64,000 bases of DNA from Parcubacteria bacterium C7867-006 (GTDB lineage Bacteria > Patescibacteriota > Minisyncoccia > Phycocordibacterales > DATDWN01). Location of the stretch: NCBI GenBank assembly GCA_001189155.1, contig LFCP01000001.1:23160-87159 (forward strand), written 5' to 3'. Shown one piece after another: positions 4,171 to 62,993 of this stretch (positions are counted from its first letter, which is position 1; each line of letters begins with the position of its first letter). The notes under the pieces were generated by a model. It was not told the origin of the DNA. It was given only the letters and a program-made list of their open reading frames with translations, and ran no database searches. The position numbers and the translations under genes were made by a program.

Positions 4171-5211
4171 GTGGGATCTACCATTTCCTCGGTGAACATA
4201 TTTGCGTCAATAATCCCAATTTTTCTAATTTTGACGTTATTTTTAGCCCCAAAAACTACACATGCAGGTGTTAGTGATGTTACCTGTTCTATATTTGGGA
4301 TTTTTTGTCCTGTAGAAGCAGAGACAGAAGAACTAGAGGCAAATTCTCAGAACATGGCCCTTCTTCAAGCTGTCATTTCTCCAGACCCAAAAGCTTCTTC
4401 AACAAAAGATAACTCTGTCATTGTTGGTGGTAATTCCCTTGCTCCAGAGACTCAGGCACCAGAATCTAAATCAATAGAGGATGATCAGATTAGTTTATAT
4501 GTTGTTCATCAGGGAGACACCTTGCCAGCTATAGCCAAGATGTTTGGTGTTACAGTAAACACAATAAGATGGGCTAATGATATAAAAGGTAACACAATAA
4601 GTGTCGGTCAAACTTTGGTAATTCTTCCTATATCTGGAATACAACATACTGTTAAATCTGGAGATACACTTCAAAGTATTGCTAAATTACATAAAGGAGA
4701 TTTGAATGAAATATTGCAATATAACAACTTAACTAAAGATGCAAAACTAGCAATCGGAGATATCATTGTTATTCCAGATGGTGAGGCAACAGTCACAACA
4801 AGTTCTTCTGGAACAAAAACTGGAACTACAAAACCTAGTTCCTCATATCCTGTTTACGATGGTTACTATATGAGACCTATAATAGGTGGAATTAGAACTC
4901 AAGGAGTTCATGGTCATAACGGTGTTGATTTGGCTTCATCATATGGCGCAAAGATTTATGCTGCTGCTGATGGTGATGTTATTATTTCAAGAAGTTCTGG
5001 ATGGAATGGTGGTTATGGTTCATATATTGTAATCAAGCATGGAAATGGAACACAAACTTTGTACGGACATTTGAGTGGAACTGCGGTTTCTGCTGGTCAA
5101 CGTGTTACACAAGGACAGGTAATAGGATATATGGGTAACTCAGGACAGGTAACGGGACATACTGGAGTACATCTACACTTTGAGATTCGTGGTGCCAGAA
5201 ATCCATTTTAA
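4171..5211 (+). CDS. Secreted peptidoglycan hydrolase with two LysM domains and a C-terminal M23 peptidase domain
   Basis: N-terminal signal/TM segment. Two LysM repeats (YVVHQGDTLPAIAKMFGV..., HTVKSGDTLQSIAKLHKG...). M23 motifs HNGVDLA and GHTGVHLHFEIR. Confidence 0.8.
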   Translation: MGSTISSVNIFASIIPIFLILTLFLAPKTTHAGVSDVTCSIFGIFCPVEAETEELEANSQNMALLQAVISPDPKASSTKDNSVIVGGNSLAPETQAPESKSIEDDQISLYVVHQGDTLPAIAKMFGVTVNTIRWANDIKGNTISVGQTLVILPISGIQHTVKSGDTLQSIAKLHKGDLNEILQYNNLTKDAKLAIGDIIVIPDGEATVTTSSSGTKTGTTKPSSSYPVYDGYYMRPIIGGIRTQGVHGHNGVDLASSYGAKIYAAADGDVIISRSSGWNGGYGSYIVIKHGNGTQTLYGHLSGTAVSAGQRVTQGQVIGYMGNSGQVTGHTGVHLHFEIRGARNPF

Positions 5212-5366
5212 CACTCAGGTCTTTTTCCTGAATCTCATCGTCTAAAATTTGAAAAATATCTTCACCGTACTATAAGTACGCCTCAGATAATTTTTAAAAT
5301 TTTATACGCGACCTTCAGGAAAAATCCTCTGAGTTATTTTTCAAATTTGATTTTTTTAAAAACCAA

Positions 5367-6929
5367 CTACAAAGTTTGATATTTCTTAGGACGATACTGG
5401 AGAGCTTCTAAAATGTGGTTTTCAGAAATTTCTTTCTCCCCTTCCATATCAGCAATAGTTCTCGCTAGTTTGATAATGCGATGATATGAACGCGCAGAGA
5501 GGTCTAGTTGTTTTGCTGAATTATTTAAAACCTCTTTTACTTTATCTGAAAGTTTTATATGAGAGACTAAATCTTTTGCCGTTAGTTCAGCATTGGTTTT
5601 TATTTTTAATTTTTTATATCTACCTTCTTGTATTTTTCTAGCCTTCCCTATTCTCGGAATTATTTTTTCAGTTTTTTCGTGAAGATCCCTTGAGTCAGTT
5701 AGTTTACCGTGTTCTATCTTTGAAACTTCAACCCATAAATCTATTCTATCTACTATTGGTCCAGATAATTTTCTTTTATATCTTTCTATTGCTTGTACTG
5801 AACAAGTGCAATCTTTGCCTTTTACTCCTAGGTTTCCGCACGGACAAGGATTCATTGTGGCAACCAAAATAAAATGGGCAGGATATTTTACTGAACCTTT
5901 TGCGCGAGAGACCGTCACCACTCTGTCTTCTAGAGGTTGTCTTAAAGTTTCCAAAACTTTTCTATCAAACTCTGGGAATTCATCTAGAAACAAAACTCCT
6001 TTATGGGCCAAAGTCACTTCACCGGGTTTTAGGTTTGTTCCTCCTCCAACCAAAGAGACATATGATGCTGTGTGGTGAGGTGAACGAAAAGGAGGATTCT
6101 CTATTAGACCTTCTTGTAGGATTCCGCCGATAGAATAAATAGATGTAACCTCTAGCATCTCATCAAAAGAAAGTTTTGGAAGTAAGTGCGTAAAAGCTTT
6201 TGCCAGCATAGTTTTTCCAGTTCCAGGTGGGCCATACATTATGATGTTGTGTCCTCCAGCCGCAGCTATCTCAAGTCCCCTTTTTGCGGACTCCTGACCC
6301 TTTACATCTGCAAAGTCTACTTCAATTTCTCTTTTTATTTTCTTTTTCTTTTTGCTCTTGTATAAAGGAAGAAAAATTTTTTGAACAGGATTTGTTTCCT
6401 CATCATATTCTTTTGTGTTTATATGTTTCACCACATCGAGAAGTGACTCTGCTCCGTAAACTTTTATTCCATTTATACTAGAAGCTTCCTCAGCATTTTC
6501 AATTGGCAAAAATATTTCTGTGAAACCATGCTTCGCTGCCATCTGTGCTATAGGCAGAGCACCTTTGATTGGTCTAAGTTTTCCATCCAAAGATAATTCG
6601 CCAATGAATAACCTGTTTTCAACAGACGCTTCTATGTCTCCGGAGGCGATAAGATAAGCTAGTGCAATAGGTAAATCAAACAACGGTCCTTCTTTTTTAA
6701 TATCTGCTGGGGCCAGTGAAACAACAACTTTTTGATTTTTGTTTTTAGGAGATTTCCAGCCAGAATTTTTTATTGCAGCTCCAACTCGGTCTTTTGATTC
6801 ATCAACGGATTTATCGGCTAGGCCGACTATAGAAAAAGAGTGGAGCCCTTTTGAGAGATCCACCTCTATATCTATTAACTGTGCGGAAAGTAGTATTGCT
6901 TGAGCTGAATATATTTTTGAAACAGCCAT
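5367..6929 (-). CDS. comM: YifB/ComM family Mg-chelatase-like AAA+ ATPase
   Basis: Lon-like N-terminal domain, Walker A GPPGTGKTMLA and a ComM/YifB-like C-terminal region. Carries an internal KKKKKIKRE Lys-rich insertion. Confidence 0.85.
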   Translation of the reverse strand: MAVSKIYSAQAILLSAQLIDIEVDLSKGLHSFSIVGLADKSVDESKDRVGAAIKNSGWKSPKNKNQKVVVSLAPADIKKEGPLFDLPIALAYLIASGDIEASVENRLFIGELSLDGKLRPIKGALPIAQMAAKHGFTEIFLPIENAEEASSINGIKVYGAESLLDVVKHINTKEYDEETNPVQKIFLPLYKSKKKKKIKREIEVDFADVKGQESAKRGLEIAAAGGHNIIMYGPPGTGKTMLAKAFTHLLPKLSFDEMLEVTSIYSIGGILQEGLIENPPFRSPHHTASYVSLVGGGTNLKPGEVTLAHKGVLFLDEFPEFDRKVLETLRQPLEDRVVTVSRAKGSVKYPAHFILVATMNPCPCGNLGVKGKDCTCSVQAIERYKRKLSGPIVDRIDLWVEVSKIEHGKLTDSRDLHEKTEKIIPRIGKARKIQEGRYKKLKIKTNAELTAKDLVSHIKLSDKVKEVLNNSAKQLDLSARSYHRIIKLARTIADMEGEKEISENHILEALQYRPKKYQTL

Positions 6930-6938
6930 AGTTTTTAA

Positions 6939-7295
6939 CTACATATGAGACTTGCAAGTTCTGGCTGAAGGGTTGGCCATAAGTCGGTCTTCCTCTATTT
7001 CCTCACCACCAACTTCACAAACTCCATATGTTCCATTTTCTATTTTTTCTAAAGCATCTTTAACATCCTTTAGTTGTCTTTCAAGATTTTCAACTTCAGC
7101 ATTGTTGTTTTCAAATTGTTCTAGACTTCCCGCTACTTCTCCTTCGTCGGCTTCGTCTGCACCATTCTCTGGGATAGTTGCTTGCCAATCAGATGGATTT
7201 TCTGGATTCATTCTTCCAATAGAAGCAAGCTGTTTCTCTACAGTTTCTTTCTCTTTTGATAAAACTTCTTTGAAATGTTGTGTGTCTATAGTCAT
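6939..7295 (-). CDS. DksA/TraR-family zinc-finger-like regulator
   Basis: Coiled-coil N-terminus and a DksA-like C-terminus (GTYGVCEVGGEEIEEDRLMANPSARTCKSH). Only 2 Cys are present, so the zinc finger is degenerate. Confidence 0.55.
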   Translation of the reverse strand: MTIDTQHFKEVLSKEKETVEKQLASIGRMNPENPSDWQATIPENGADEADEGEVAGSLEQFENNNAEVENLERQLKDVKDALEKIENGTYGVCEVGGEEIEEDRLMANPSARTCKSHM

Positions 7296-9596: not shown

Positions 9597-9785
9597 ATGG
9601 CTAGCTTCTCAGTTTCTCTCATCGGGTCCACTAACCATATCATCGTTCACTCGTTTGTGGACGGAGACCGGATTGTGGAAATCCCAACTCGCCGCTCCAA
9701 GGAAGACTTTCTCGCTCACATCCGTTGGCTCGAACGCCACGGGCGCCGTGAAGAAGCAAGGGTGCTCCGAGAGAAGTACTCTTAA
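9597..9785 (+). CDS. Small protein (62 aa) of unknown function in GC-rich mini-cassette A
   Basis: About 55% GC versus a 33% host. GGGAGG SD 7 nt upstream of ATG. Upstream TTGACA-16-TATTAT promoter. Followed by a GC-rich terminator. Confidence 0.55.
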   Translation: MASFSVSLIGSTNHIIVHSFVDGDRIVEIPTRRSKEDFLAHIRWLERHGRREEARVLREKYS

Positions 9786-9797
9786 CTCACAACTTTT

Positions 9798-9835
9798 GGC
9801 CGTCAGTTCGTAAGAGCTGACGGCCTCTTCATTTA
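9798..9835 (+). terminator. Intrinsic terminator of cassette A
   Basis: ggccgtcag-ttcgtaagag-ctgacggcc hairpin followed by tcttcatttat. Confidence 0.7.
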
Positions 9836-9924
9836 TATTGATATCGTACCAGAAGAGTACTTCTACTAGACTAAGTATAGTATGTCGCACAATATTTTGA
9901 TTTAATGATACAATTAGACTAAAT

Positions 9925-16703: not shown

Positions 16704-16749
16704 CAGACGAAAGGCCCCTCGAAAGAGGCGGCCTTTCGCTTTTAGCGGG

Positions 16750-16960
16750 ATAGCGGAGAGAGGGGTCGGGAGAGGATACTCTCCCGTGGAGGAAGGTGAG
16801 GTTGGGATGGGACCCAACCGCAAGACCTTTTTCAGGTATTTTATGAGCAGAGCGAAATAAAATACCGAAAAGGTGTACTGCTCCTGTAAGGAGGGGAGTA
16901 TTTAAAACCGCCGGTTTCCCAGCCCGCGTATTCCCGCACTTTACAATTATTTTTGTAATG
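16750..16960 (+). other. GC-rich structured non-coding element bracketed by tRNA-Gly-like 5' and 3' end sequences
   Basis: Starts GCGGGAUAGCGG (compare tRNA 5' GCGGGAUUAG) and ends UAUUCCCGCAC (compare tRNA 3' UAUCCCGCACA). Internal hairpins GGGAGAG-GAUA-CUCUCCC, GGUUGGG..CCCAACC and GGUAUUUUAU..AUAAAAUACC. Preceded by a 13-bp terminator hairpin at 16706-16745. Confidence 0.3.
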
Positions 16961-16973
16961 ATAAAGTTCGTTT

Positions 16974-17594
16974 ATGTTAACAGCAACAAGTACAGAATTT
17001 ATACTCCTTTCTCGTCAGGTAGATTATTTGAATAATTCATTTAATTGGGTTGTGGGTGGAATTGGTGTAGTAATTACAATTGTAATTGGAGTTATTGGTC
17101 TGACCCAGTTTTTTTACAATAGAAAATTGATTTCACAAGAATCAGAGGTAATAAAGAAAGATCTTGCTGATGTTGTAAATAAGATAGTGGACGATAAGGC
17201 GCTAAGTTTGCAATCATTTATCGAGGAAAGCATTGCAGATGTAAGGATGGAGTTGGAACTTCAAAAGAAATCAATGGGAGGTGATATTGCAAGAAGTTAC
17301 GCTCTTTCGTGTGAAAAAGATGATCTTCATGCCACTGCATTTAATTGGTGGCTTTCTGCTGCAGAAAATTATGATTCTAGAAATAATGGTTTGTTGCCAA
17401 TGACTATTAAATCAGCAAAAGATTGTCTGGAAAAGATAGTAGCCGGTGATAGTTTTAATATAAAAATATTGTGGGATAAAATGACAGATAATCAGGAAAA
17501 AATAGCTAGACTAAAAATAAAGCACCCCACAGAGGCAAAATTACTTGAAGATTTAATGATGGCGAAAGCTAGTCTTTCAGAAACAAAACTTTAA
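16974..17594 (+). CDS. Hypothetical membrane-anchored protein
   Basis: 206-aa ORF with one N-terminal TM segment (VVGGIGVVITIVIGVIGLTQFF). Confidence 0.5.
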   Translation: MLTATSTEFILLSRQVDYLNNSFNWVVGGIGVVITIVIGVIGLTQFFYNRKLISQESEVIKKDLADVVNKIVDDKALSLQSFIEESIADVRMELELQKKSMGGDIARSYALSCEKDDLHATAFNWWLSAAENYDSRNNGLLPMTIKSAKDCLEKIVAGDSFNIKILWDKMTDNQEKIARLKIKHPTEAKLLEDLMMAKASLSETKL

Positions 17595-17607
17595 TATTTA
17601 ACCAATC

Positions 17608-17637
17608 AAAAAAGAGCTCAATTGAGCTCTTTTTTGA
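17608..17637. terminator. Bidirectional intrinsic terminator between the 16974 ORF and hup
   Basis: aaaaaagagctcaattgagctctttttt: an 8-bp perfect palindrome flanked by A6 and T6. Confidence 0.75.
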
Positions 17638-17656
17638 TTTCTCTCGAGAGAAATGT

Positions 17657-19773: not shown

Positions 19774-19903
19774 ATAAAACTCGTAAATCTGGCAAATTTC
19801 TGTGTTGCTAGGATTATTTGCTCCACGCGCAGTACTATAATGTACAGCTTGGTCACAAATAATCCGTCGCGCCTTGAACTTTACTCAGATTTACGAGTTT
19901 TAT
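19774..19903 (-). repeat. Structured repeat element, copy 1: nested long hairpin (18-bp outer and 10-bp inner inverted repeats) homologous to 41722..41834
   Basis: Outer ataaaactcgtaaatctg / cagatttacgagttttat; inner ggattatttg / caaataatcc; conserved core GUUCAAGGCGCGACG...UAGUACUGCGC.UGGAG...CUAGCAAC. Confidence 0.6.
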
Positions 19904-20499: not shown

Positions 20500-20604
20500 G
20501 AAAATGAGTATAGCAGAAAGTAAAGAATAGGTAAAATTGGTTTAAAAAAGAGCCCGGCAGAATTATCTACCGGGCCCTCAACTCTTCCAGTGGCCGTTCG
20601 ACCT

Positions 20605-20790
20605 CTACTGGAAACGCGATCTTCCTTCCGATGTGGTCCTCAGCCCGACGGTTTCGTCCTGGGTCGGGTTGTTTTTGGGAAGGTTGTTGTACTCGGGACA
20701 CGCCTTGCCGTGCCCTGCATTTCCATGGAAAGTCTGGTTGCACCACGGGCACTCGCGTTCCCGAGGCGGGTCCACAAAAGATCTTGGCAT
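20605..20790 (-). CDS. Small Cys/His-rich protein (61 aa, putative zinc ribbon) in GC-rich mini-cassette B
   Basis: About 60% GC. GGAGGAGGAG SD immediately upstream of ATG. CPWCNQTFHGNAGHGKAC motif. GC hairpin terminator gagggcccgg..ccgggctc followed by T6 at 20550-20590. Confidence 0.5.
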   Translation of the reverse strand: MPRSFVDPPRERECPWCNQTFHGNAGHGKACPEYNNLPKNNPTQDETVGLRTTSEGRSRFQ

Positions 20791-20822
20791 ACTCCTCCTC
20801 CGAAATATGTTATCATTTTGTC

Positions 20823-24772: not shown

Positions 24773-25930
24773 TTATTCTGATACTCCTGTTTCAGATTCT
24801 ACTGGAGCTTCTGAAGTTTCAGTTTTTCCTCCAACAGACTGAATATCTATTTTCCAACCAGTAAGTTTTGCTGCTAGTCTAACGTTCTGTCCACCTTTTC
24901 CGATTGCTAATGACTGTTGGTCTTCAGAAACAGTAACAGTTGCTTGTTTTTCTGCTTCATTGATTTTTACGTCAATAGTTTTTGCAGGGGATAGAGCATC
25001 CTCAATGAATTTCTTTGGATCATCATTCCACTCTATAATATCTATTTTTTCTCCACCCAACTCTGACATAACAGTAGAGACACGAACTCCTCTTTGTCCA
25101 ACCATAGAACCGACAGGATCTATATGAGAATCTTTTGATGAAACAGCTATTTTTGTTCTAGAGCCAGCTTCTCGTGCTATAGATTTAACTATTACAGTTC
25201 CATTAGCTATTTCTGGAGCCTCTGTTTCAAAAAGTTTTTCTAGGAATTTTGGATGACTTCTAGAAAGTCTTAGAAACACACCTTTTCCTGACTCTTCTAC
25301 TCTGTATAGATAGGCTCGGATTCTCTCTCCCTGACCAAATCTTTCTCCAGGGATTTGTTCCTCATATGGAAGTAGTCCAGTAGCTCGGCCCATATCTATA
25401 AATATATTACCTCGCTCTATTCTCTGAACTGTTCCAGAGACAATTTCTCCTTCTCTTTTTCCATATTCAGACATAACAGAAACTTTCTCTGCTTCTCTGA
25501 TTTTTTGCATAATAACCTGCTTTGCTGTTTGAGCGGCAATTCTACTATAATCTTCCTGGCCTTCTAGAGGGAAAACCATCTCATCCCCAAGCTGAACGTC
25601 TTTTTTAATACGACGAGCATCACCAATCATTATGTGTTTCTCTGGGTTGTATAGTTCTATTTCAGCTTCACCTTCTTTGGGTTCTAGGGGTATTTCGTCC
25701 TCGTTCATTGCTACTGTTGACTCATCAACTACGATTTTTACCTGAAACATTTCAGTTTTTCCTGAATTCATATCAAATTTAGCTCGAACGATTTGTCCTT
25801 TCTTTCCATATTCCTTTTTGTAAGCAGTAGCTAAGGCAAGTTCAATAGCCTCAATGATTTTTGCTTGAGGGATTCCTCGCTCTTCTTCTAGTTGAGCTAG
25901 TACTGAATGTATAACTTTTAAGTCCATCAT
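24773..25930 (-). CDS. nusA: Transcription termination/antitermination factor NusA
   Basis: NusA N-terminal domain, S1 and KH domains. Start taken at MMDLKV (25930); the listed ORF to 26053 is an upstream extension. Confidence 0.85.
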   Translation of the reverse strand: MMDLKVIHSVLAQLEEERGIPQAKIIEAIELALATAYKKEYGKKGQIVRAKFDMNSGKTEMFQVKIVVDESTVAMNEDEIPLEPKEGEAEIELYNPEKHIMIGDARRIKKDVQLGDEMVFPLEGQEDYSRIAAQTAKQVIMQKIREAEKVSVMSEYGKREGEIVSGTVQRIERGNIFIDMGRATGLLPYEEQIPGERFGQGERIRAYLYRVEESGKGVFLRLSRSHPKFLEKLFETEAPEIANGTVIVKSIAREAGSRTKIAVSSKDSHIDPVGSMVGQRGVRVSTVMSELGGEKIDIIEWNDDPKKFIEDALSPAKTIDVKINEAEKQATVTVSEDQQSLAIGKGGQNVRLAAKLTGWKIDIQSVGGKTETSEAPVESETGVSE

Positions 25931-25949
25931 AATGATTTTTGTTAATTTT

Positions 25950-25980
25950 TTTAAAAAAATGGCCCGCCGTGAGGCGAACT
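25950..25980 (-). terminator. Intrinsic terminator/attenuator hairpin immediately upstream of the nusA start
   Basis: Minus strand GUUCGCC-UCAC-GGCGGGC followed by U7, about 25 nt before the ATG. Confidence 0.5.
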
Positions 25981-26029
25981 TCAATAAAACAATAATATCA
26001 GCAACTAAATTATTTGTCAAATTAATAAA

Positions 26030-26300
26030 GAGAGGGGGCCTGTCCGAAGACAAGGCCCCCTCTGGTTTTGGTGCGGGACGTTATTAGTCCGCACCTAGGG
26101 TATAGGAATACCCTATAGCATCCAAGTCTAGATCTAAAAGACAATGATTACGACTACGGCGTGCTCTCAAGTCCCAGATGTACGTCTGTGGACGAGGCAC
26201 AGGTGACGGACTAATCATTGGTTTTGATCTAAATGAGTGTTGCGGGCACCCACTGGTGATATGGACTTGTCACCATTACGACACGGCGTCCGTCACCCCT
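26030..26300. promoter_or_regulatory. GC-rich highly structured leader/intergenic element between divergent nusA and pilB
   Basis: Hairpins AGAGGGGGCC..GGCCCCCUCU (10 bp), UAGGGUAU-AGGA-AUACCCUA and GGUGACGGAC...GUCCGUCACC (10-bp inverted repeat spanning about 75 nt). No ORF. Confidence 0.3.
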
Positions 26301-26373
26301 CAAATGTAAACGATATGCAGATTATTGCTTTAGTCAATTATTTTTATTTCTTATTAACATATGCGATTAGAAA

Positions 26374-28167
26374 TTGAATACTACGGCATGCTATAATTTA
26401 AAAACAAATTTCTCTATGCACATTGAAGAATCACAATTAAAGAATTTTATTCTTGATTCAGGCCTTGTCTCACGCGCTGATTTAGAGTCTGCAGAAAAAG
26501 AAGCAAAAGAAACTGCCGGCAATCTTGGGAAAATTCTTGTAAATAAAGGAAAACTAACGGAGGATGATCTGCGAAGAATGCAAGCTTATATTCTCGGGAT
26601 ACCATTCGTAGATTTGAAAGGCGAGAAACTGCCTTTTGATGTACTTTCTCTTATTCCAGAACCAATTGCTAGAAACCACAACATTGTAGCTTTCAAAAAA
26701 ACTAGTGACACACTAGAGGTTGCTATGCTTGATACAGAGGATCTAACAGCTATTGATTTCGTAAAGAAAAAAGTAGGCTTGAAAATTCTTCCTCGTCTTA
26801 CAGATGCTGATTCAATGAAAAGTGCTATTTTGCAATATCAAAAAAGTTTGAAAGCAGAGTTTGGTGATTTGATTGCAGAAGATGTTGGTCAAATAAAAAG
26901 TATCCCAGATGATAAACTAGATGATTTGAATGAATCCGATCTAAAAAAGTTGGCTGATGATGTGCCGATGATTCGTATAGTAGACACTCTTTTAAAGCAT
27001 GCTATTTTACAAAATGCATCAGATATTCATATCGAGCCACAAGAAACTCAGCTTTTAGTTAGATATAGGATAGATGGACTTTTGCACGATGCTATGATTT
27101 TGCCAAAAAATATGGCTCCTAGTATAGCCGCCCGTATAAAAGTTCTTTCCGGTTTGAAACTAGATGAAAAAAGATTACCTCAGGATGGAAGATTTAAAAT
27201 TGACTCTGATGGAGAAAAAGTTTCTTTCCGTGTTTCTACGTTACCAACATACTATGGAGAGAAAATTGTAATGCGTCTTTTGAGAGATGCTGTTTCAGGA
27301 TTTACTTTGGAGGGTTTGGCTTTTCATGGTTCAGGTCTTGAGAGAATTCACACAGCTTTGAAATCTACAACAGGAATGATTCTAGCTACTGGTCCAACTG
27401 GTTCTGGAAAAACAACCACTCTTTATACTATTTTGGATATTTTAAATACTCCAGACGTAAATATTTCTACTATTGAAGATCCTATTGAGTACCAAATGAA
27501 AAGAATCAATCAAACTCAAGTCAGACCAGAGATAGGTTTCTCTTTTGTATCTGGACTTAGAACTTTAGTTCGTCAGGACCCAGATATTATTATGGTTGGT
27601 GAAATTCGAGATAACGAAACAGCTTCTTTGGCTGTTAACGCTTCTCTTACTGGTCACGTTGTGCTTTCTACTCTTCACACAAACTCTGCTGCTGGAGCCG
27701 TACCAAGACTTATAGATATGAAGGTAGAACCTTTTCTTATCGTTTCCACGGTAAATATAATAGTAGGACAGAGACTTGTGAGAAAATTAACAGATCAAAA
27801 AGAAAAATACTTTTTAACAAAGGCAGAAATAAACACTCTCGGTAAGTCAATTAATCTAGATAAAGTTTTGAATGCATTGAAAGAAGAAAAAGTTGTTGGA
27901 AAGTCAGACGACTGGGAAAAAATTCCATTTTGGAGAGTTAAAGAAGGAGTCTCTCCTTCAGAGGGTTTTTCTGGAAGAGCTGGTATTCATGAGATTTTGA
28001 AAGTTTCTCCGGCAATTAAAGAAGCTATTTTGAAATCTGGAAATGCTGATGAGATTCAAAAAATTGCAGAACAGGAGGGTATGCTAACTATGTTTGAGGA
28101 CGGTATTTTCCAAGCAGTACAAGGTAACACAACAATAGAGGAGGTATTAAGAGTAATATCAGAGTAA
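26374..28167 (+). CDS. pilB: Type IV pilus assembly ATPase PilB (GspE family)
   Basis: T2SE N-terminal domains and Walker A GPTGSGKTTTL; 597 aa. An alternative start at 26416 is possible. Confidence 0.85.
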   Translation: MNTTACYNLKTNFSMHIEESQLKNFILDSGLVSRADLESAEKEAKETAGNLGKILVNKGKLTEDDLRRMQAYILGIPFVDLKGEKLPFDVLSLIPEPIARNHNIVAFKKTSDTLEVAMLDTEDLTAIDFVKKKVGLKILPRLTDADSMKSAILQYQKSLKAEFGDLIAEDVGQIKSIPDDKLDDLNESDLKKLADDVPMIRIVDTLLKHAILQNASDIHIEPQETQLLVRYRIDGLLHDAMILPKNMAPSIAARIKVLSGLKLDEKRLPQDGRFKIDSDGEKVSFRVSTLPTYYGEKIVMRLLRDAVSGFTLEGLAFHGSGLERIHTALKSTTGMILATGPTGSGKTTTLYTILDILNTPDVNISTIEDPIEYQMKRINQTQVRPEIGFSFVSGLRTLVRQDPDIIMVGEIRDNETASLAVNASLTGHVVLSTLHTNSAAGAVPRLIDMKVEPFLIVSTVNIIVGQRLVRKLTDQKEKYFLTKAEINTLGKSINLDKVLNALKEEKVVGKSDDWEKIPFWRVKEGVSPSEGFSGRAGIHEILKVSPAIKEAILKSGNADEIQKIAEQEGMLTMFEDGIFQAVQGNTTIEEVLRVISE

Positions 28168-36460: not shown

Positions 36461-36826
36461 TTGAAGGTTGTGTACACAGCGCAAATGCCATTCATGAGAG
36501 ATGGGCGTCCTGTTGGTGCGCGTTTCGAGACTGAGGATGACTTTATCCCTGATTTCGAAATGGAAATCAAGCCAACAGACGACGTAACTCTCTACGTTGA
36601 GAGTCGATCGTACAACCCGCATGACAAGTCGGTCTGCATCGAACTCACATTCCTCAACCCCTTCGATGAAGAAGACGAAGGCGCAACAGATCTCGATTCA
36701 CGAGAGCTGGCGCAGATCGAGATGGCACTCGAGCAGTTGATCGCGAATGGTTGGTTACCCATCAACGATGATGACCTCATTCGTTCTGATGGTGAGTTGC
36801 CGAAGCGCAGGGAGTCGACTCACTAA
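36461..36826 (+). CDS. Acidic protein (about 121 aa, roughly 23% Asp+Glu) of unknown function in GC-rich mini-cassette C
   Basis: AGGAGG SD 6 nt before a TTG start (alternative ATG at 36485). About 55% GC. Terminator ggtcggcac-ttcg-gtgccgacc at 36851-36880. Confidence 0.5.
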   Translation: MKVVYTAQMPFMRDGRPVGARFETEDDFIPDFEMEIKPTDDVTLYVESRSYNPHDKSVCIELTFLNPFDEEDEGATDLDSRELAQIEMALEQLIANGWLPINDDDLIRSDGELPKRRESTH

Positions 36827-36962
36827 CTCTTTCAACCTCCACCCATGAGTTCAACAAGGTCGGCACTTCGGTGCCGACCACTTTTATATAAAAATATATT
36901 CTGAAATAGTCGAAAGGCCCCGGTCAGATGACACGAGGCCTGTTCTCAGTTGACTTGAGCGT

Positions 36963-37340
36963 CTAGATACCCAAGTCGTAGCGTTCGGTTGATGGAAGAT
37001 ATTTTCTTCCCAGCCACCGAAAGATGTAGTCCACGATAGATGAGACTTCAGGGATTTCTGGGTCGTTAGTCCTCCCGTACGGCTCAAATTTCATGAAGGT
37101 GAACTTCTTCACGAACACTCGGAGCGGAACTCCTCTTTGCAAGGAAGCCGAAGTTCCCATTGCAATAGAGTTCAGAAGACCAGAGAGAGTTGAGCCCTCT
37201 TTGTTCATTCTGACAAAAATCTCACCGAGTGTACCGTCGTCATAGACGCCGGTAGTGATGATGATTTCGTGTTCTCCGTTGATCCACACTGTCCGTGTAA
37301 ACCCGGCCCTTTCTGGGGGTAGACGATTTCTTTCTGCCAT
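36963..37340 (-). CDS. Isolated C-terminal fragment (125 aa) homologous to class II (B12-dependent) ribonucleotide reductase, part of cassette C
   Basis: GEIFVRMNKEGSTLSGLLNSIAMGTSASLQRGVPLRVFVKKFTFMKFEPYGRTNDPEIPEVSSIVDYIFRWL resembles the NrdJ C-terminal region. Own GGAGG SD. About 48% GC. No N-terminal catalytic part nearby. Confidence 0.45.
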   Translation of the reverse strand: MAERNRLPPERAGFTRTVWINGEHEIIITTGVYDDGTLGEIFVRMNKEGSTLSGLLNSIAMGTSASLQRGVPLRVFVKKFTFMKFEPYGRTNDPEIPEVSSIVDYIFRWLGRKYLPSTERYDLGI

Positions 37341-38082: not shown

Positions 38083-38222
38083 TTATGACACCTACTATAG
38101 TTAAAATTTTTTTGGAACATCGCGGAGTCCGTGAAGAGACGAGCGCGAAGAAAATTTTCAGCAGAAAATTATTCTGTTTCCAAAAAAGTTTTAAATATAG
38201 TAGGCGATAAATTTTAAAATTT

Positions 38223-41307: not shown

Positions 41308-41358
41308 TTTTGACAGAGTCCAAAAACAGTGTTATTTTGATAAACAGAGGAGGCCGCC

Positions 41359-41643
41359 GTGAGACACGCCAAATTTGAGCAGTATACTTTCCGGTATACT
41401 GTCCCAAGCACTGACGCACAAGGAGAGGAGACGAGGGTGAAAAGAGAGATTCCCCTCGGTTTCAAGACCAGAGAGACAGCTTTGGCGATGGTGAGGGAAT
41501 ACGCCATCAGCCTCAGCTCTGACCCGAATCTTCAAGGGTTCAAGCTCATCTGCCCAGACGATTCCGAGATCGAAATCGATGTCTCGGGGGTGGTTCGGGT
41601 GAACGAGACGGCGCTGGGGATGCTTTCCCACAGCCGGCCTTAA
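41359..41643 (+). CDS. Small protein (94 aa) of unknown function in GC-rich mini-cassette D
   Basis: AGGAGG SD 5 nt before a GTG start. About 55% GC. Upstream TTGACA-17 promoter. Terminator acgaccgg..ccggtcgt followed by a T-run at 41668-41710. Confidence 0.5.
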   Translation: MRHAKFEQYTFRYTVPSTDAQGEETRVKREIPLGFKTRETALAMVREYAISLSSDPNLQGFKLICPDDSEIEIDVSGVVRVNETALGMLSHSRP

Positions 41644-41721
41644 TCTCAAGTTCTACACAAACAAAACGACCGGGCCTATCAAGGTTCCGGTCGTTCTCAT
41701 TTTTATTTAAGTTTGTGTGGA

Positions 41722-41834
41722 TTTTTGTTTGAGTTCAAGGCGCGACGTTTTATTTTTGACTAAGCTTTACATCTAGTACTGCGCATGGAGAAAATAAAAC
41801 TAGCAACGAAGAAATCAGACAAAAAGACGACAAA
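41722..41834 (+). repeat. Structured repeat element, copy 2 (homolog of 19774..19903)
   Basis: Shares GUUCAAGGCGCGACG, UAGUACUGCGC(A/G)UGGAG and CUAGCAAC..AGAAAU. Inner stem GUUUUAUUUU / AAAAUAAAAC shows compensatory changes relative to copy 1. Confidence 0.6.
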
Positions 41835-42077
41835 CTATACTATTCCTGCTTTGTGGAGTGTGGCGTATGCTCCGTTTTTCTGAATAGTTTTTATTCCTTT
41901 TGTAGATAGAGTTAAAGTTACTGATTTTTTAAGTTCAGGAATGTAGATCTTCTTTTTCTGAAGATTTGCGTATCGTCTTTTTACTCCAGTTGGGTTGAAC
42001 TGTGTAGCACGAGTTCGGTTAGAGTAACCTCCACCTAACTGAGATGATTTGTTTGTTATTGCGCAGACTTTTGCCAT
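41835..42077 (-). CDS. rpmB: 50S ribosomal protein L28
   Basis: MAKVCAITNKSSQLGGGYSNRTRAT...; 80 aa. Confidence 0.85.
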   Translation of the reverse strand: MAKVCAITNKSSQLGGGYSNRTRATQFNPTGVKRRYANLQKKKIYIPELKKSVTLTLSTKGIKTIQKNGAYATLHKAGIV

Positions 42078-43221: not shown

Positions 43222-43692
43222 ATGCGACGAAAAGTAACTAACAGAAATATAGTAGGACCAGATCACGTATACAACTCTGAAAAGATTGGTAAATTTATCA
43301 ACTATGTAATGCTACGAGGTCAAAAAGAAACAGCTAGAGGTATAGTTTACGAGGCTCTTGAGTTGGTTAAAGAAAGAGCAAAAGTAGAAGATCCTATGGA
43401 GGTTTTGGATGCAGCTTTGAAAAATGCAGGTCCTCTAACAGAAGTACGATCAAGACGAGTTGGTGGTGCTAACTACCAGATTCCTCGAGAGGTTAGACCT
43501 GAGAGACGATCTTTTCTATCTATGAAATGGATCATCGAAGCAGCACGAGAAGGAAAGGGTGCTCCTATGGCATCACGACTAGCAGATGAGATCATTCTAG
43601 CTTCAAAGAACGAAGGAAAGGCGGCAAAGAAGAGAGAGGATACTCATAAGATGGCGGAAGCCAATAAAGCCTTTGCTCATTTTGCTTGGTAA
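43222..43692 (+). CDS. rpsG: 30S ribosomal protein S7
   Basis: Canonical S7 sequence with str-operon synteny. Terminator at 43692-43722. Confidence 0.95.
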   Translation: MRRKVTNRNIVGPDHVYNSEKIGKFINYVMLRGQKETARGIVYEALELVKERAKVEDPMEVLDAALKNAGPLTEVRSRRVGGANYQIPREVRPERRSFLSMKWIIEAAREGKGAPMASRLADEIILASKNEGKAAKKREDTHKMAEANKAFAHFAW

Positions 43693-43924
43693 GAAAAAGC
43701 CCTTCGGGGCCTTTTTCTTACCAAGCAAAATCAATTAAATAGTGCATGGTCGGTAGATAAAATTGCTTTAGAAATTTTATCTCCGGGTGTATTTTTTAAA
43801 AACTCTTAACGTCGTATCTCATCCAAATTGTGAAAACTTAAATTAAACAGTGCTTGATCGGTAAGAAAAAGTTTTTTAATTTTTGTCTTCTGGGTTGGAT
43901 TTTACTTATGATAAAATATTTCAT

Positions 43925-62154: not shown

Positions 62155-62288
62155 TTAGTTTTTTGTTCTGTTTCGTTACATTGAATTTGTAGAAAAGAAA
62201 AAACAGTGTTGGAATATTAAATATTTTGACACTGTTTTTTCTTTTCTATAGACTGGCATAAGAGTTGTTAAAGAGAGGAGGCGATAAG

Positions 62289-62993
62289 GTGGCAGATTGG
62301 AAAAAGAGCAAACCTAGAAGAGACTGGAATGCTCCTCCGAAGAAGTACGCAGGCCTACCACCCCCTCCAAAAGAGGCTGTGGCTAGGTATGTCGAGATGC
62401 TCGACAAAATCCCCAGACCAGGAAGGGTCATTGATTGGGGGCTTAGGGAAGGTGACCAGTTGCTCGTGAGCTGGCTTCCTCCATACGTAGCTGATGGTTC
62501 TCCACAAGGTGATATAAGAGGGTGTCAGATCGCAGTTCTGCGAGACGGCAAGTATCTTCTTTGGAGCGCTCGGCTCCTAATGAAGGACCCAACTGAAACT
62601 TACCTTTGTGCTCCATACCTAACATCCAAGAAGGATGTCGGCCACTTTGTTGATCTCATTGCGCGACTCTCCGGTTACGCTTTGCAGGTGAATGTAGAGG
62701 CTACAACATCCTTCAGGGCTGTGCTGGTGGATTCTGGTAATGAAGTTAGTCGCCGTGTGGTTCGTGGCGACGAGCTTTACTACAGCTTCGCATCCAGAAT
62801 ATTCACTGTTTCTCGCTCTCACATGACAATTGATATGAACCTTTATCATCCAACTGACTCTGGTATTATCATTGAGGCTAGGACTCCATACCTCAATGCT
62901 ATTCACCATGGTGTTGCGCTGGTGCACTTGGCCGCTGAGGTCAACGGGTTCATGCCAAAGTGTGTGGGTAACAACAAGTACGTTTGTGTGTAG
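62289..62993 (+). CDS. Protein (about 234 aa) of unknown function in GC-rich mini-cassette E, inserted between secY and adk
   Basis: About 55% GC. AGGAGG SD 7 nt before a GTG start (62289). Upstream TTGACA-17-TAGACT embedded in the secY terminator. GC hairpin terminator ggccgcgacgatgttctcgtcgcggcc at 62997-63023. Confidence 0.5.
   Translation: MADWKKSKPRRDWNAPPKKYAGLPPPPKEAVARYVEMLDKIPRPGRVIDWGLREGDQLLVSWLPPYVADGSPQGDIRGCQIAVLRDGKYLLWSARLLMKDPTETYLCAPYLTSKKDVGHFVDLIARLSGYALQVNVEATTSFRAVLVDSGNEVSRRVVRGDELYYSFASRIFTVSRSHMTIDMNLYHPTDSGIIIEARTPYLNAIHHGVALVHLAAEVNGFMPKCVGNNKYVCV

Follow-up and report, generated by a model that had tools for sequence, protein, structure and literature searches.

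An apparently unannotated rod-hairpin repeat family of CPR bacteria that often lies flush with opposite-strand stop codons

Results

We identified a long imperfect hairpin against the stop codon of rpmB in a 64-kb stretch of a Parcubacteria genome (the window, to which all positions refer unless a locus is named). The ORF list places rpmB, which encodes ribosomal protein L28, on the minus strand at 41835-42077 with its TAG stop at 41835-41837, and its orthologues at two related loci, L117 and L119, match Pfam Ribosomal_L28. On the far side of the hairpin lies a small plus-strand unit, here called cassette D (41310-41643), with a promoter-like site (41310-41338) and a 94-amino acid, high-GC ORF (41359-41643). 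Between the two, and outside the element, a compact G+C-rich hairpin (41660-41706) has a stem formed by 41666-41673 and 41687-41694, T-runs on either side, and stable DNA-parameter folds on both strands (z -5.1 on the plus strand and -5.4 on the minus strand). The T-run on the rpmB side is the better one; that on the plus side lies 5 nt past the stem. This hairpin is the probable bidirectional terminator of the small upstream gene (plus) and of rpmB (minus), and the first-pass annotation was right that a hairpin adjoins the element on its left.

The region at 41310-41706 (plus) is one of several high-GC islands (about 0.5-0.55) in this 36% GC genome, the others being at 9609-9890, 20545-20800 (minus), 36461-37340 and 62265-62993 (plus). 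They are wedged between conserved genes, one of them between secY and adk, and mostly lack a Pfam match, with the exception of a TSCPD domain at 36963-37340. Two of them, 20545-20800 and 41310-41706, are small self-contained genes, each provided with a ribosome-binding site and a terminator of its own and the second also with a promoter-like site.

The element at rpmB, which we refer to as copy 2, spans 127 nt (41710-41836, sense strand plus), as given by its minimum free energy hairpin and by the match to the covariance model described below. It had earlier been drawn from 41722 to 41834; the end at the rpmB stop stands, whereas the outer stem begins 12 nt before the proposed start. In the folds, the outer stems pair their 5' arms (41710-41731; AGTTTGT and GGATTTTTGTTTG) with their 3' arms (41816-41836), whose final two bases, 41835-41836, supply the C and T of the CTA that is complementary to the TAG stop of rpmB. 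A conserved basal internal loop consists of GTTCAAGGCGCGAC on its 5' side (41733-41746) and TAGCAACGAAGAAAT on its 3' side (41801-41815), and is followed inward by a middle stem (41747-41800), in which 41747-41757 pairs with 41790-41800 and which encloses an apical GACTAAGCTTTAC-loop-GTACTGCGCATGGA. RNA folding of 41715-41840 gave -33.2 kcal/mol (z -4.3) on the plus strand and -22.1 kcal/mol (z -1.65) on the minus strand, and the model interval 41702-41842 gave -40.0 kcal/mol in sense against -28.2 kcal/mol for the reverse complement. As single-stranded DNA, copy 2 folds weakly (-17.9 kcal/mol, z -2.7).

The covariance model and the folds place three copies in the window, at 41710-41836 (copy 2, plus), 19774-19903 (copy 1, minus) and, more divergent, 5205-5344 (copy 3, minus), each of which forms a long imperfect hairpin. 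The 16-mer AGTTCAAGGCGCGACG (41732-41747, plus, and 19865-19880, minus) and the 17-mer TAGTACTGCGCRTGGAG (41774-41790, plus, and 19821-19837, minus) each occur exactly twice in the 64 kb; shuffled windows contained a mean of 0.14 and 0.03 matches, respectively, and no shuffle run reached 2. The repeat shared by copies 1 and 2 is far above chance. When one is inverted and aligned to the other, a core of ~90 nt is roughly 85% identical, and the outer stem differs in sequence with its pairing kept. These shared oligomers, the core identity and the model scores (131.8 bits for copy 1; 127.5 bits for copy 2, matched over 41702-41842) confirm that both are the same structured element in opposite orientations, as had been proposed.

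Copy 1 folds at -55.2 kcal/mol (z -10.1). It begins 24 nt past the clpP stop and is followed by UUUUAUCCAUUUUU, with a U-rich run, and then by a promoter-like site for rny; copy 1 could thus serve as a clpP terminator. Its orthologue was found at positions 4498-4638 of locus L063. Copy 3 (25.7 bits, E 0.0013) belongs to a different subfamily and sits between the convergent stop codons of a comM-like gene and an M23 peptidase gene. It has in common with the other copies GAGGAUUUUU...AAAAAGACC and an apical GUAC-loop-GUAC. A fragment of its subfamily lies just upstream of the copy at locus L110. Another long inverted repeat, with arms of ~28 nt (CCTACTATAGTTAAAATTTTTTTGGAAC), occupies 38092-38205 between an RNase H-like gene and comEC; its model score is weak (17.9 bits) and it may be a different hairpin repeat.

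Copy 2 ends at the rpmB stop, and the rpmB mRNA must therefore carry its reverse complement as a 3'-UTR hairpin. No T-run follows copy 2 on the plus strand (CTATACTATTCC) or on the minus strand (CACACAAACTTAAAT), and the terminator scan made no call there. We predict that rpmB transcripts should include the reverse complement of the element and stop at 41660-41706, and that the cassette D transcript should end ahead of the element. The suggested role as a 3'-UTR structure applies literally to rpmB. The suggested role as a convergent terminator is not borne out at this locus, in view of the lack of a U-tract on both strands and of a scan call, of the 41660-41706 hairpin beside the element, and of L117 and L119, which have a bidirectional terminator and no element. 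Copy 2 does not look like the terminator of rpmB itself; 41660-41706 looks like the terminator for both genes.

In L117, a relative with 80% identity in ComEC, comEC and rpmB are separated by a 26-nt spacer holding a single bidirectional terminator, and the element is absent. L119 likewise lacks the element and has a homologue of the 41660-41706 terminator at the same place; it also has, at the cassette D locus, a 72-amino acid ORF of normal GC that is a weak homologue of cassette D and has no counterpart in L117. The window carries cassette D, the terminator and the element, which is therefore the latest arrival. Copy 2 was inserted, in this lineage specifically, into the gap of a few bases that separates the rpmB stop from the 41660-41706 hairpin. 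The length of the L28 protein is unchanged beside the element, and the rpmB stop is TAG in place of TAA.

Scanned for the two motifs in exact form, 185,579 species genomes gave 80 loci: nine true homologues and 71 chance matches in high-GC genomes. All nine are from Patescibacteria MAGs, labelled Harrisonbacteria, Zambryskibacteria, Paceibacterota, Minisyncoccia, ‘Saccharibacteria’ and WWE3, and a metagenome scan with a stricter motif added 34 more. The covariance model, built from 39 sequences, matched only CPR loci (0/71 of the chance motif loci from the genome scan and 0/2 of those from the metagenome scan) and also recovered more divergent copies, including 5205-5344 (minus) in the window and others elsewhere.

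The ‘WWE3’ and ‘Zambryskibacteria’ contigs (L040 and L057) are identical over the element and its flanks, and the ‘Saccharibacteria’ MAG (L063 and L119) is syntenic with the window over tRNA-Gly, HU, rny and clpP and over comEC, rpmB, rpsL and rpsG; the MAG labels look unreliable. Between tRNA-Gly and HU, L063 has a high-GC stretch of ~200 nt (1893-2100) where the window has a 206-amino acid ORF without a Pfam match (16705-17640), and this slot appears to be a variable insertion hot spot beside a tRNA gene.

Among 44 distinct copies, drawn from CPR genomes and from metagenomes, 96.6% of pair cells hold a standard pair, compared with 77% in shuffles and 34-47% with slid partners. Compensatory evidence is broad: both sides have changed in 27 of 34 pairs, among them all seven pairs of helix 1 (the outer stems) and 10 of the 12 pairs of helix 4 (the middle stem). 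The covariation score is 0.507 against 0.134 in shuffles, of which 0/500 reach it, and at most 0.112 in slid controls. With this compensatory pair support, the element is a conserved structured RNA in the Rfam/R-scape sense; the folded molecule may be RNA or DNA.

What is conserved in sequence is the set of purine-rich internal loops with G.A mismatches, AAGGCGCGA opposite AGCAAC..AGAAAU, together with an apical part, GAC(C/U)AAGC...UGCGCRUGGAG, in which the length of the loop varies among copies. The search patterns account for some of this invariance. The 5' loop motif is invariant in alignments A2 and A3 partly because the search pattern required it, and it varies in the divergent copies found by the model. 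The 3' loop, AGCAAC..AGAAAT, lay outside every search pattern and yet is at least 90% conserved in the 39 sequences. Divergent copies show Watson-Crick pairs in place of the G.A mismatches, and therefore support the pairing model.

At gathering thresholds, Rfam 15 returned only four tRNAs in the window, none on the element. Rfam in E-value mode over 41600-41950 and 11 homologous loci found nothing on it either; the best overlap in 41600-41950 was a greA leader, whose 19.7 bits fall below the threshold of 60. The element had no BLAST match in phages, plasmids or E. coli genomes, a motif scan of viral contigs found none, and the literature, searched also by motif sequences, yielded no description of it. 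We also considered and rejected several specific identities. A tRNA or tmRNA was dismissed, as the tRNA/tmRNA search found four tRNAs, all elsewhere in the window. We discarded a small ORF (MQFKAR...), given stems and loops whose lengths differ by numbers not divisible by three and an in-frame stop in some subfamilies. Compared by eye, the symmetric loop of SRP RNA, the kink-turn, hairpin-ribozyme loop A, the tetraloop receptor and the dif/Xer core were none of them in register. A two-fold symmetry of the internal loops around the middle stem, seen by eye only, fails in the divergent copies.

We placed the 44 copies against simple ORF calls. In about 24 of them, as at rpmB, the element's 3' end either overlaps the stop codon of an opposite-strand gene or comes within 0-7 nt of it. 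These genes are functionally unrelated and encode L28, S7, HU, KH- and RRM-domain proteins, an mscS-like protein, PilB, FtsA, ArgS, XerC and an M23 peptidase. The 5' side of the element faces an A+T-rich spacer of 20-100 nt, which at a minimum of eight loci contains an ordinary bidirectional terminator hairpin, as read from the upstream sequences, and in about 14 of the stop-flush copies the upstream neighbour points away. Some nine copies lie in sense between co-directional genes: between clpP and rny (window, L063), between rny and HU (L063, L112), and upstream of rplC, atpA and nusA. After rpsG, L110 and L119 carry the rod element where the window has an ordinary terminator, and in L119 the reverse-complement hairpin is followed by a U-run. 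That ordinary terminator (43684-43725) incorporates the final codon of rpsG together with its stop into the stem, and a stop codon within a hairpin stem is therefore not peculiar to the element in this genome.

The element-sense strand has the more stable fold in 42 of 44 copies (mean -50.1 versus -42.6 kcal/mol), and isolated A.C mismatches number 4 in the sense folds versus 29 in the reverse-complement folds of the whole set. The same bias holds in all 22 copies that are antisense to the abutting gene (A.C mismatches, 1 versus 21), and the fold is therefore kept on the element's own strand, whichever strand the host transcribes. Upstream -10 boxes are not enriched (best score 4.05 versus 4.15 in the shuffled control), and a downstream U-tract is not general, with a mean of 4.0 T in the 12 nt 3' of the hairpin (42 copies); a U-run after the stem is confined to copy 1 and a minority of copies. 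Given no -10 enrichment, no U-tract and terminators just upstream at eight or more loci, we consider an independent small-RNA gene of the standard kind unlikely.

A cumulative GC skew minimum lies at ~25000-26400, where the predominant gene strand switches from minus to plus, and this region is probably the replication origin. We considered whether orientation follows replication, as it does in IS200/IS605. This would agree with the GC-skew switch and with all three copies in the window, which run with the replichore; the copies in L040, L110 and L119, which are antisense to ribosomal-protein operons, do not fit, and we rejected the proposal.

Each short genome stretch or contig carries 2-4 copies. 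Relatives differ in occupied and empty sites at rpmB, the HU stop, the region upstream of HU, xerC-xth and rpsG, and the KH-protein, mscS and rpsG sites are occupied in several genomes. Dispersed copies and sites occupied in one relative and empty in another are the marks of a MITE, and both were found. One subfamily, with the outer stem TTTTGTG(A)GG...CCACAAAA, follows rpsG (L110, L119), mscS (L115) and, slightly diverged, rpmB in the window; similarity among its members stops sharply at the base of the hairpin. Copying of the outer stem from the local gene end is ruled out by identical outer stems at unrelated loci.

The termini are always inverted repeats, and their sequence differs by subfamily (TARRAC...GTYYTA in many, TTTTGTG...CACAAAA in others). 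About half of the copies end in TA(R)...(Y)TA, many of these in TARRAC...GTYYTA, with the hairpin ends read by eye. A TA duplication fits the HU-stop site only, not L115 or L119, and the A+T-rich flanks make TA uninformative. No transposase gene was found in the window, where the ORF translations were read and eight ORFs compared with Pfam, or beside any copy, and no near-identical pairs were seen within one genome; the copies are old and divergent. Window copy 1 and L063 occupy the same locus in genomes ~77% identical in ComEC, and the fold is kept by paired substitutions. Such paired changes at one locus, and the sites shared by several genomes, suggest that selection acts on copies where they sit and hence that they serve the host, although templated correction inside a palindrome could produce a similar picture.

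The locus L046 contains a diversity-generating retroelement (4538-7144), upstream of rpsH, with a reverse transcriptase gene at 4538-5521 (minus) and a template/variable repeat pair of 126 nt (5963-6088 and 6430-6555, 86% identical). Two rod elements lie beside it. A link between the rod element and this reverse transcriptase was rejected, as the gene belongs to the retroelement, which has its own template and variable repeats.

Discussion

Given the covariation, distribution and placement presented above, we very confidently regard the element as a CPR-wide, apparently unannotated rod-hairpin repeat family with a strong antisense, stop-codon-flush rule. What the fold is for is a more tentative matter. 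We favour, at a probability of roughly 0.4, a MITE-like mobile hairpin element that would depend on the fold when it is itself single-stranded. The element would be non-autonomous; its sense strand would pass through a single-stranded stage recognised by a putative enzyme acting in trans, and the fold would serve the element itself. Copies may persist at gene ends because they do little harm there, with the 3' terminus ...YTA doubling as the complement of the neighbour's stop codon. The long reverse-complement 3'-UTR hairpin of the rpmB mRNA, upstream of its true terminator, would then be a by-product. We know of no transposition mechanism that would account for the rule that the 3' end abuts an opposite-strand stop codon, which counts against the mobile reading. 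It is also possible, if doubtful, that this is an undescribed CPR-specific single-strand element, whose GA-rich loops bind a dedicated factor and which installs itself at stop codons in a fixed antisense orientation. If so, it would be either a new hairpin mobile element with its own targeting enzyme or an RNA device that marks or insulates gene ends.

REP and ERIC hairpins act on mRNA 3' ends in enterobacteria, and the element could similarly be a host cis-acting RNA in the mRNA of the abutting gene, for protection of the 3' end, processing by RNase III or RNase Y, or as an aid to termination. With about 24 of 44 copies 0-7 nt from the opposite gene's stop, the mRNA would carry the hairpin before its terminator, and the occupation of identical gene ends in several genomes, the U-tract of copy 1 ahead of the rny promoter-like site, and the reverse-complement hairpin and U-run after rpsG in L119, where the window has an ordinary terminator, all point the same way. 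We nevertheless consider this reading somewhat unlikely. The strand present in most host mRNAs is the one that folds worse (22/22), and the conserved loops become pyrimidine-rich mismatches on it; a U-tract is not general on either side; no fewer than eight loci have canonical terminators after the element in the direction of the abutting gene; and the abutting genes have no common function. The strand of the fold and the flush position would both be explained if the rod, with a bound factor, acted as an insulator that stops or marks read-through or spurious sense RNA entering the 3' end of the convergent gene. At copy 2, where the plus-strand T-run lies 5 nt after the terminator stem, some read-through from the cassette D promoter-like site is conceivable. 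The upstream neighbour points away at ~14 flush copies, though, and eight or more have a bidirectional terminator upstream; these, the lack of a U-tract, and the sense copies in the HU 5' UTR (L063, L112), where a terminator would be harmful, make an insulator unlikely.

A trans-acting network appears quite improbable to us. In it, stable sense RNAs, for example the clpP 3' UTR, would pair through their loops with reverse-complement copies in other 3' UTRs; both orientations relative to transcription do occur in one genome (copy 1 versus copies 2 and 3 in the window; L063/L119), the loops are conserved and the stems variable, and copy 1 carries a tail that resembles a terminator. Purely inferential, the idea has no dedicated promoter to draw on and leaves the sense-strand fold of copies embedded in antisense unexplained. 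We rate as very improbable indeed a DNA-level site, at which a hairpin or cruciform would serve a structure-specific protein such as a recombinase or a nucleoid or replication factor. A strand-specific fold that is independent of host transcription and an Xer-type recombinase gene in the window are consistent with it; the weak fold of copy 2 as single-stranded DNA (-17.9 kcal/mol, z -2.7), the inconsistent orientation relative to the presumed direction of replication, and an apical loop too variable in length for a recombination core all argue against it.

CPR/Patescibacteria form a large, mostly uncultured share of bacterial diversity and have tiny, tightly packed genomes; to our knowledge, almost nothing is known of their non-coding elements. 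The element shows unusually strong covariation, and neither Rfam nor the phage, plasmid and E. coli collections nor the literature searched contains it; its placement flush with stop codons, antisense to the gene, follows a sharp rule. If it is mobile, it would point to an unrecognised insertion mechanism aimed at gene ends; if it serves the host, it would be a widespread 3'-end module in organisms with reduced RNA-processing machinery. In either case, thousands of CPR assemblies would be better annotated with a covariance model of the element, which would also point out one cause of broken assemblies and wrongly called small ORFs.

Among known systems, intrinsic terminators share with the element a stable hairpin right after a stop codon and, in copy 1 and a minority of copies, a U-run. 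The element differs in that copy 2 and most copies lack the U-tract, an ordinary terminator adjoins copy 2, and the hairpin is five times longer than usual and has conserved internal loops. With integron attC sites and IS200/IS605 ends it has in common that structure prevails over stem sequence, that the fold is strand-specific and that unpaired bases appear to serve recognition. The attC cores are RYYYAAC at the 5' end and GTTRRRY at the 3' end of the folded strand; in the element, by contrast, the GTT-motif comes first and the AAC-motif last on both strands, GTTCAAG does not fit GTTRRRY, and the core motifs are absent. Its copies are also dispersed, with no cassette array and no integrase, the sole tyrosine recombinase being Xer-like and 31 kb away. 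Unlike IS200/IS605 ends, it has no TnpA or TnpB gene nearby, and its orientation is independent of replication direction.

REP sequences are G+C-rich units of 20-40 nt that carry a conserved 5' tetranucleotide and occur as tens to hundreds of near-identical copies. REP/REPIN elements are mobilised by RAYT transposases, and it is thought that a single-copy enzyme recognises them as single-stranded hairpins; as side effects, REPs influence mRNA 3' ends and, when near a stop codon, translation. The element resembles them as a dispersed extragenic palindrome at gene 3' ends. It differs from the REP unit in being a single A+U-rich rod of ~125 nt with conserved loops and divergent copies, and no RAYT gene was seen in the partial genome stretches covered.

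Bacterial MITEs include ERIC/IRU, which are enterobacterial imperfect palindromes of ~127 bp, and the Correia/NEMIS, RUP and BOX-type repeats. The element has no sequence similarity to anything in E. coli genomes, and neither a target-site duplication nor a partner transposase was found in the window and the flanks of the copies. Its stems covary in place of having conserved terminal repeats, its internal loops being conserved instead, and it adds a one-strand fold and a strong rule of a 3' end at an opposite-strand stop codon. What it shares with ERIC/Correia-type repeats is an imperfect palindrome of ~100-150 nt that forms a long hairpin, several copies per genome, short intergenic sites near or overlapping stop and start codons, differing occupancy and co-transcription with its neighbours. 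Of known kinds, ERIC, Correia and REP-type repeats come closest.
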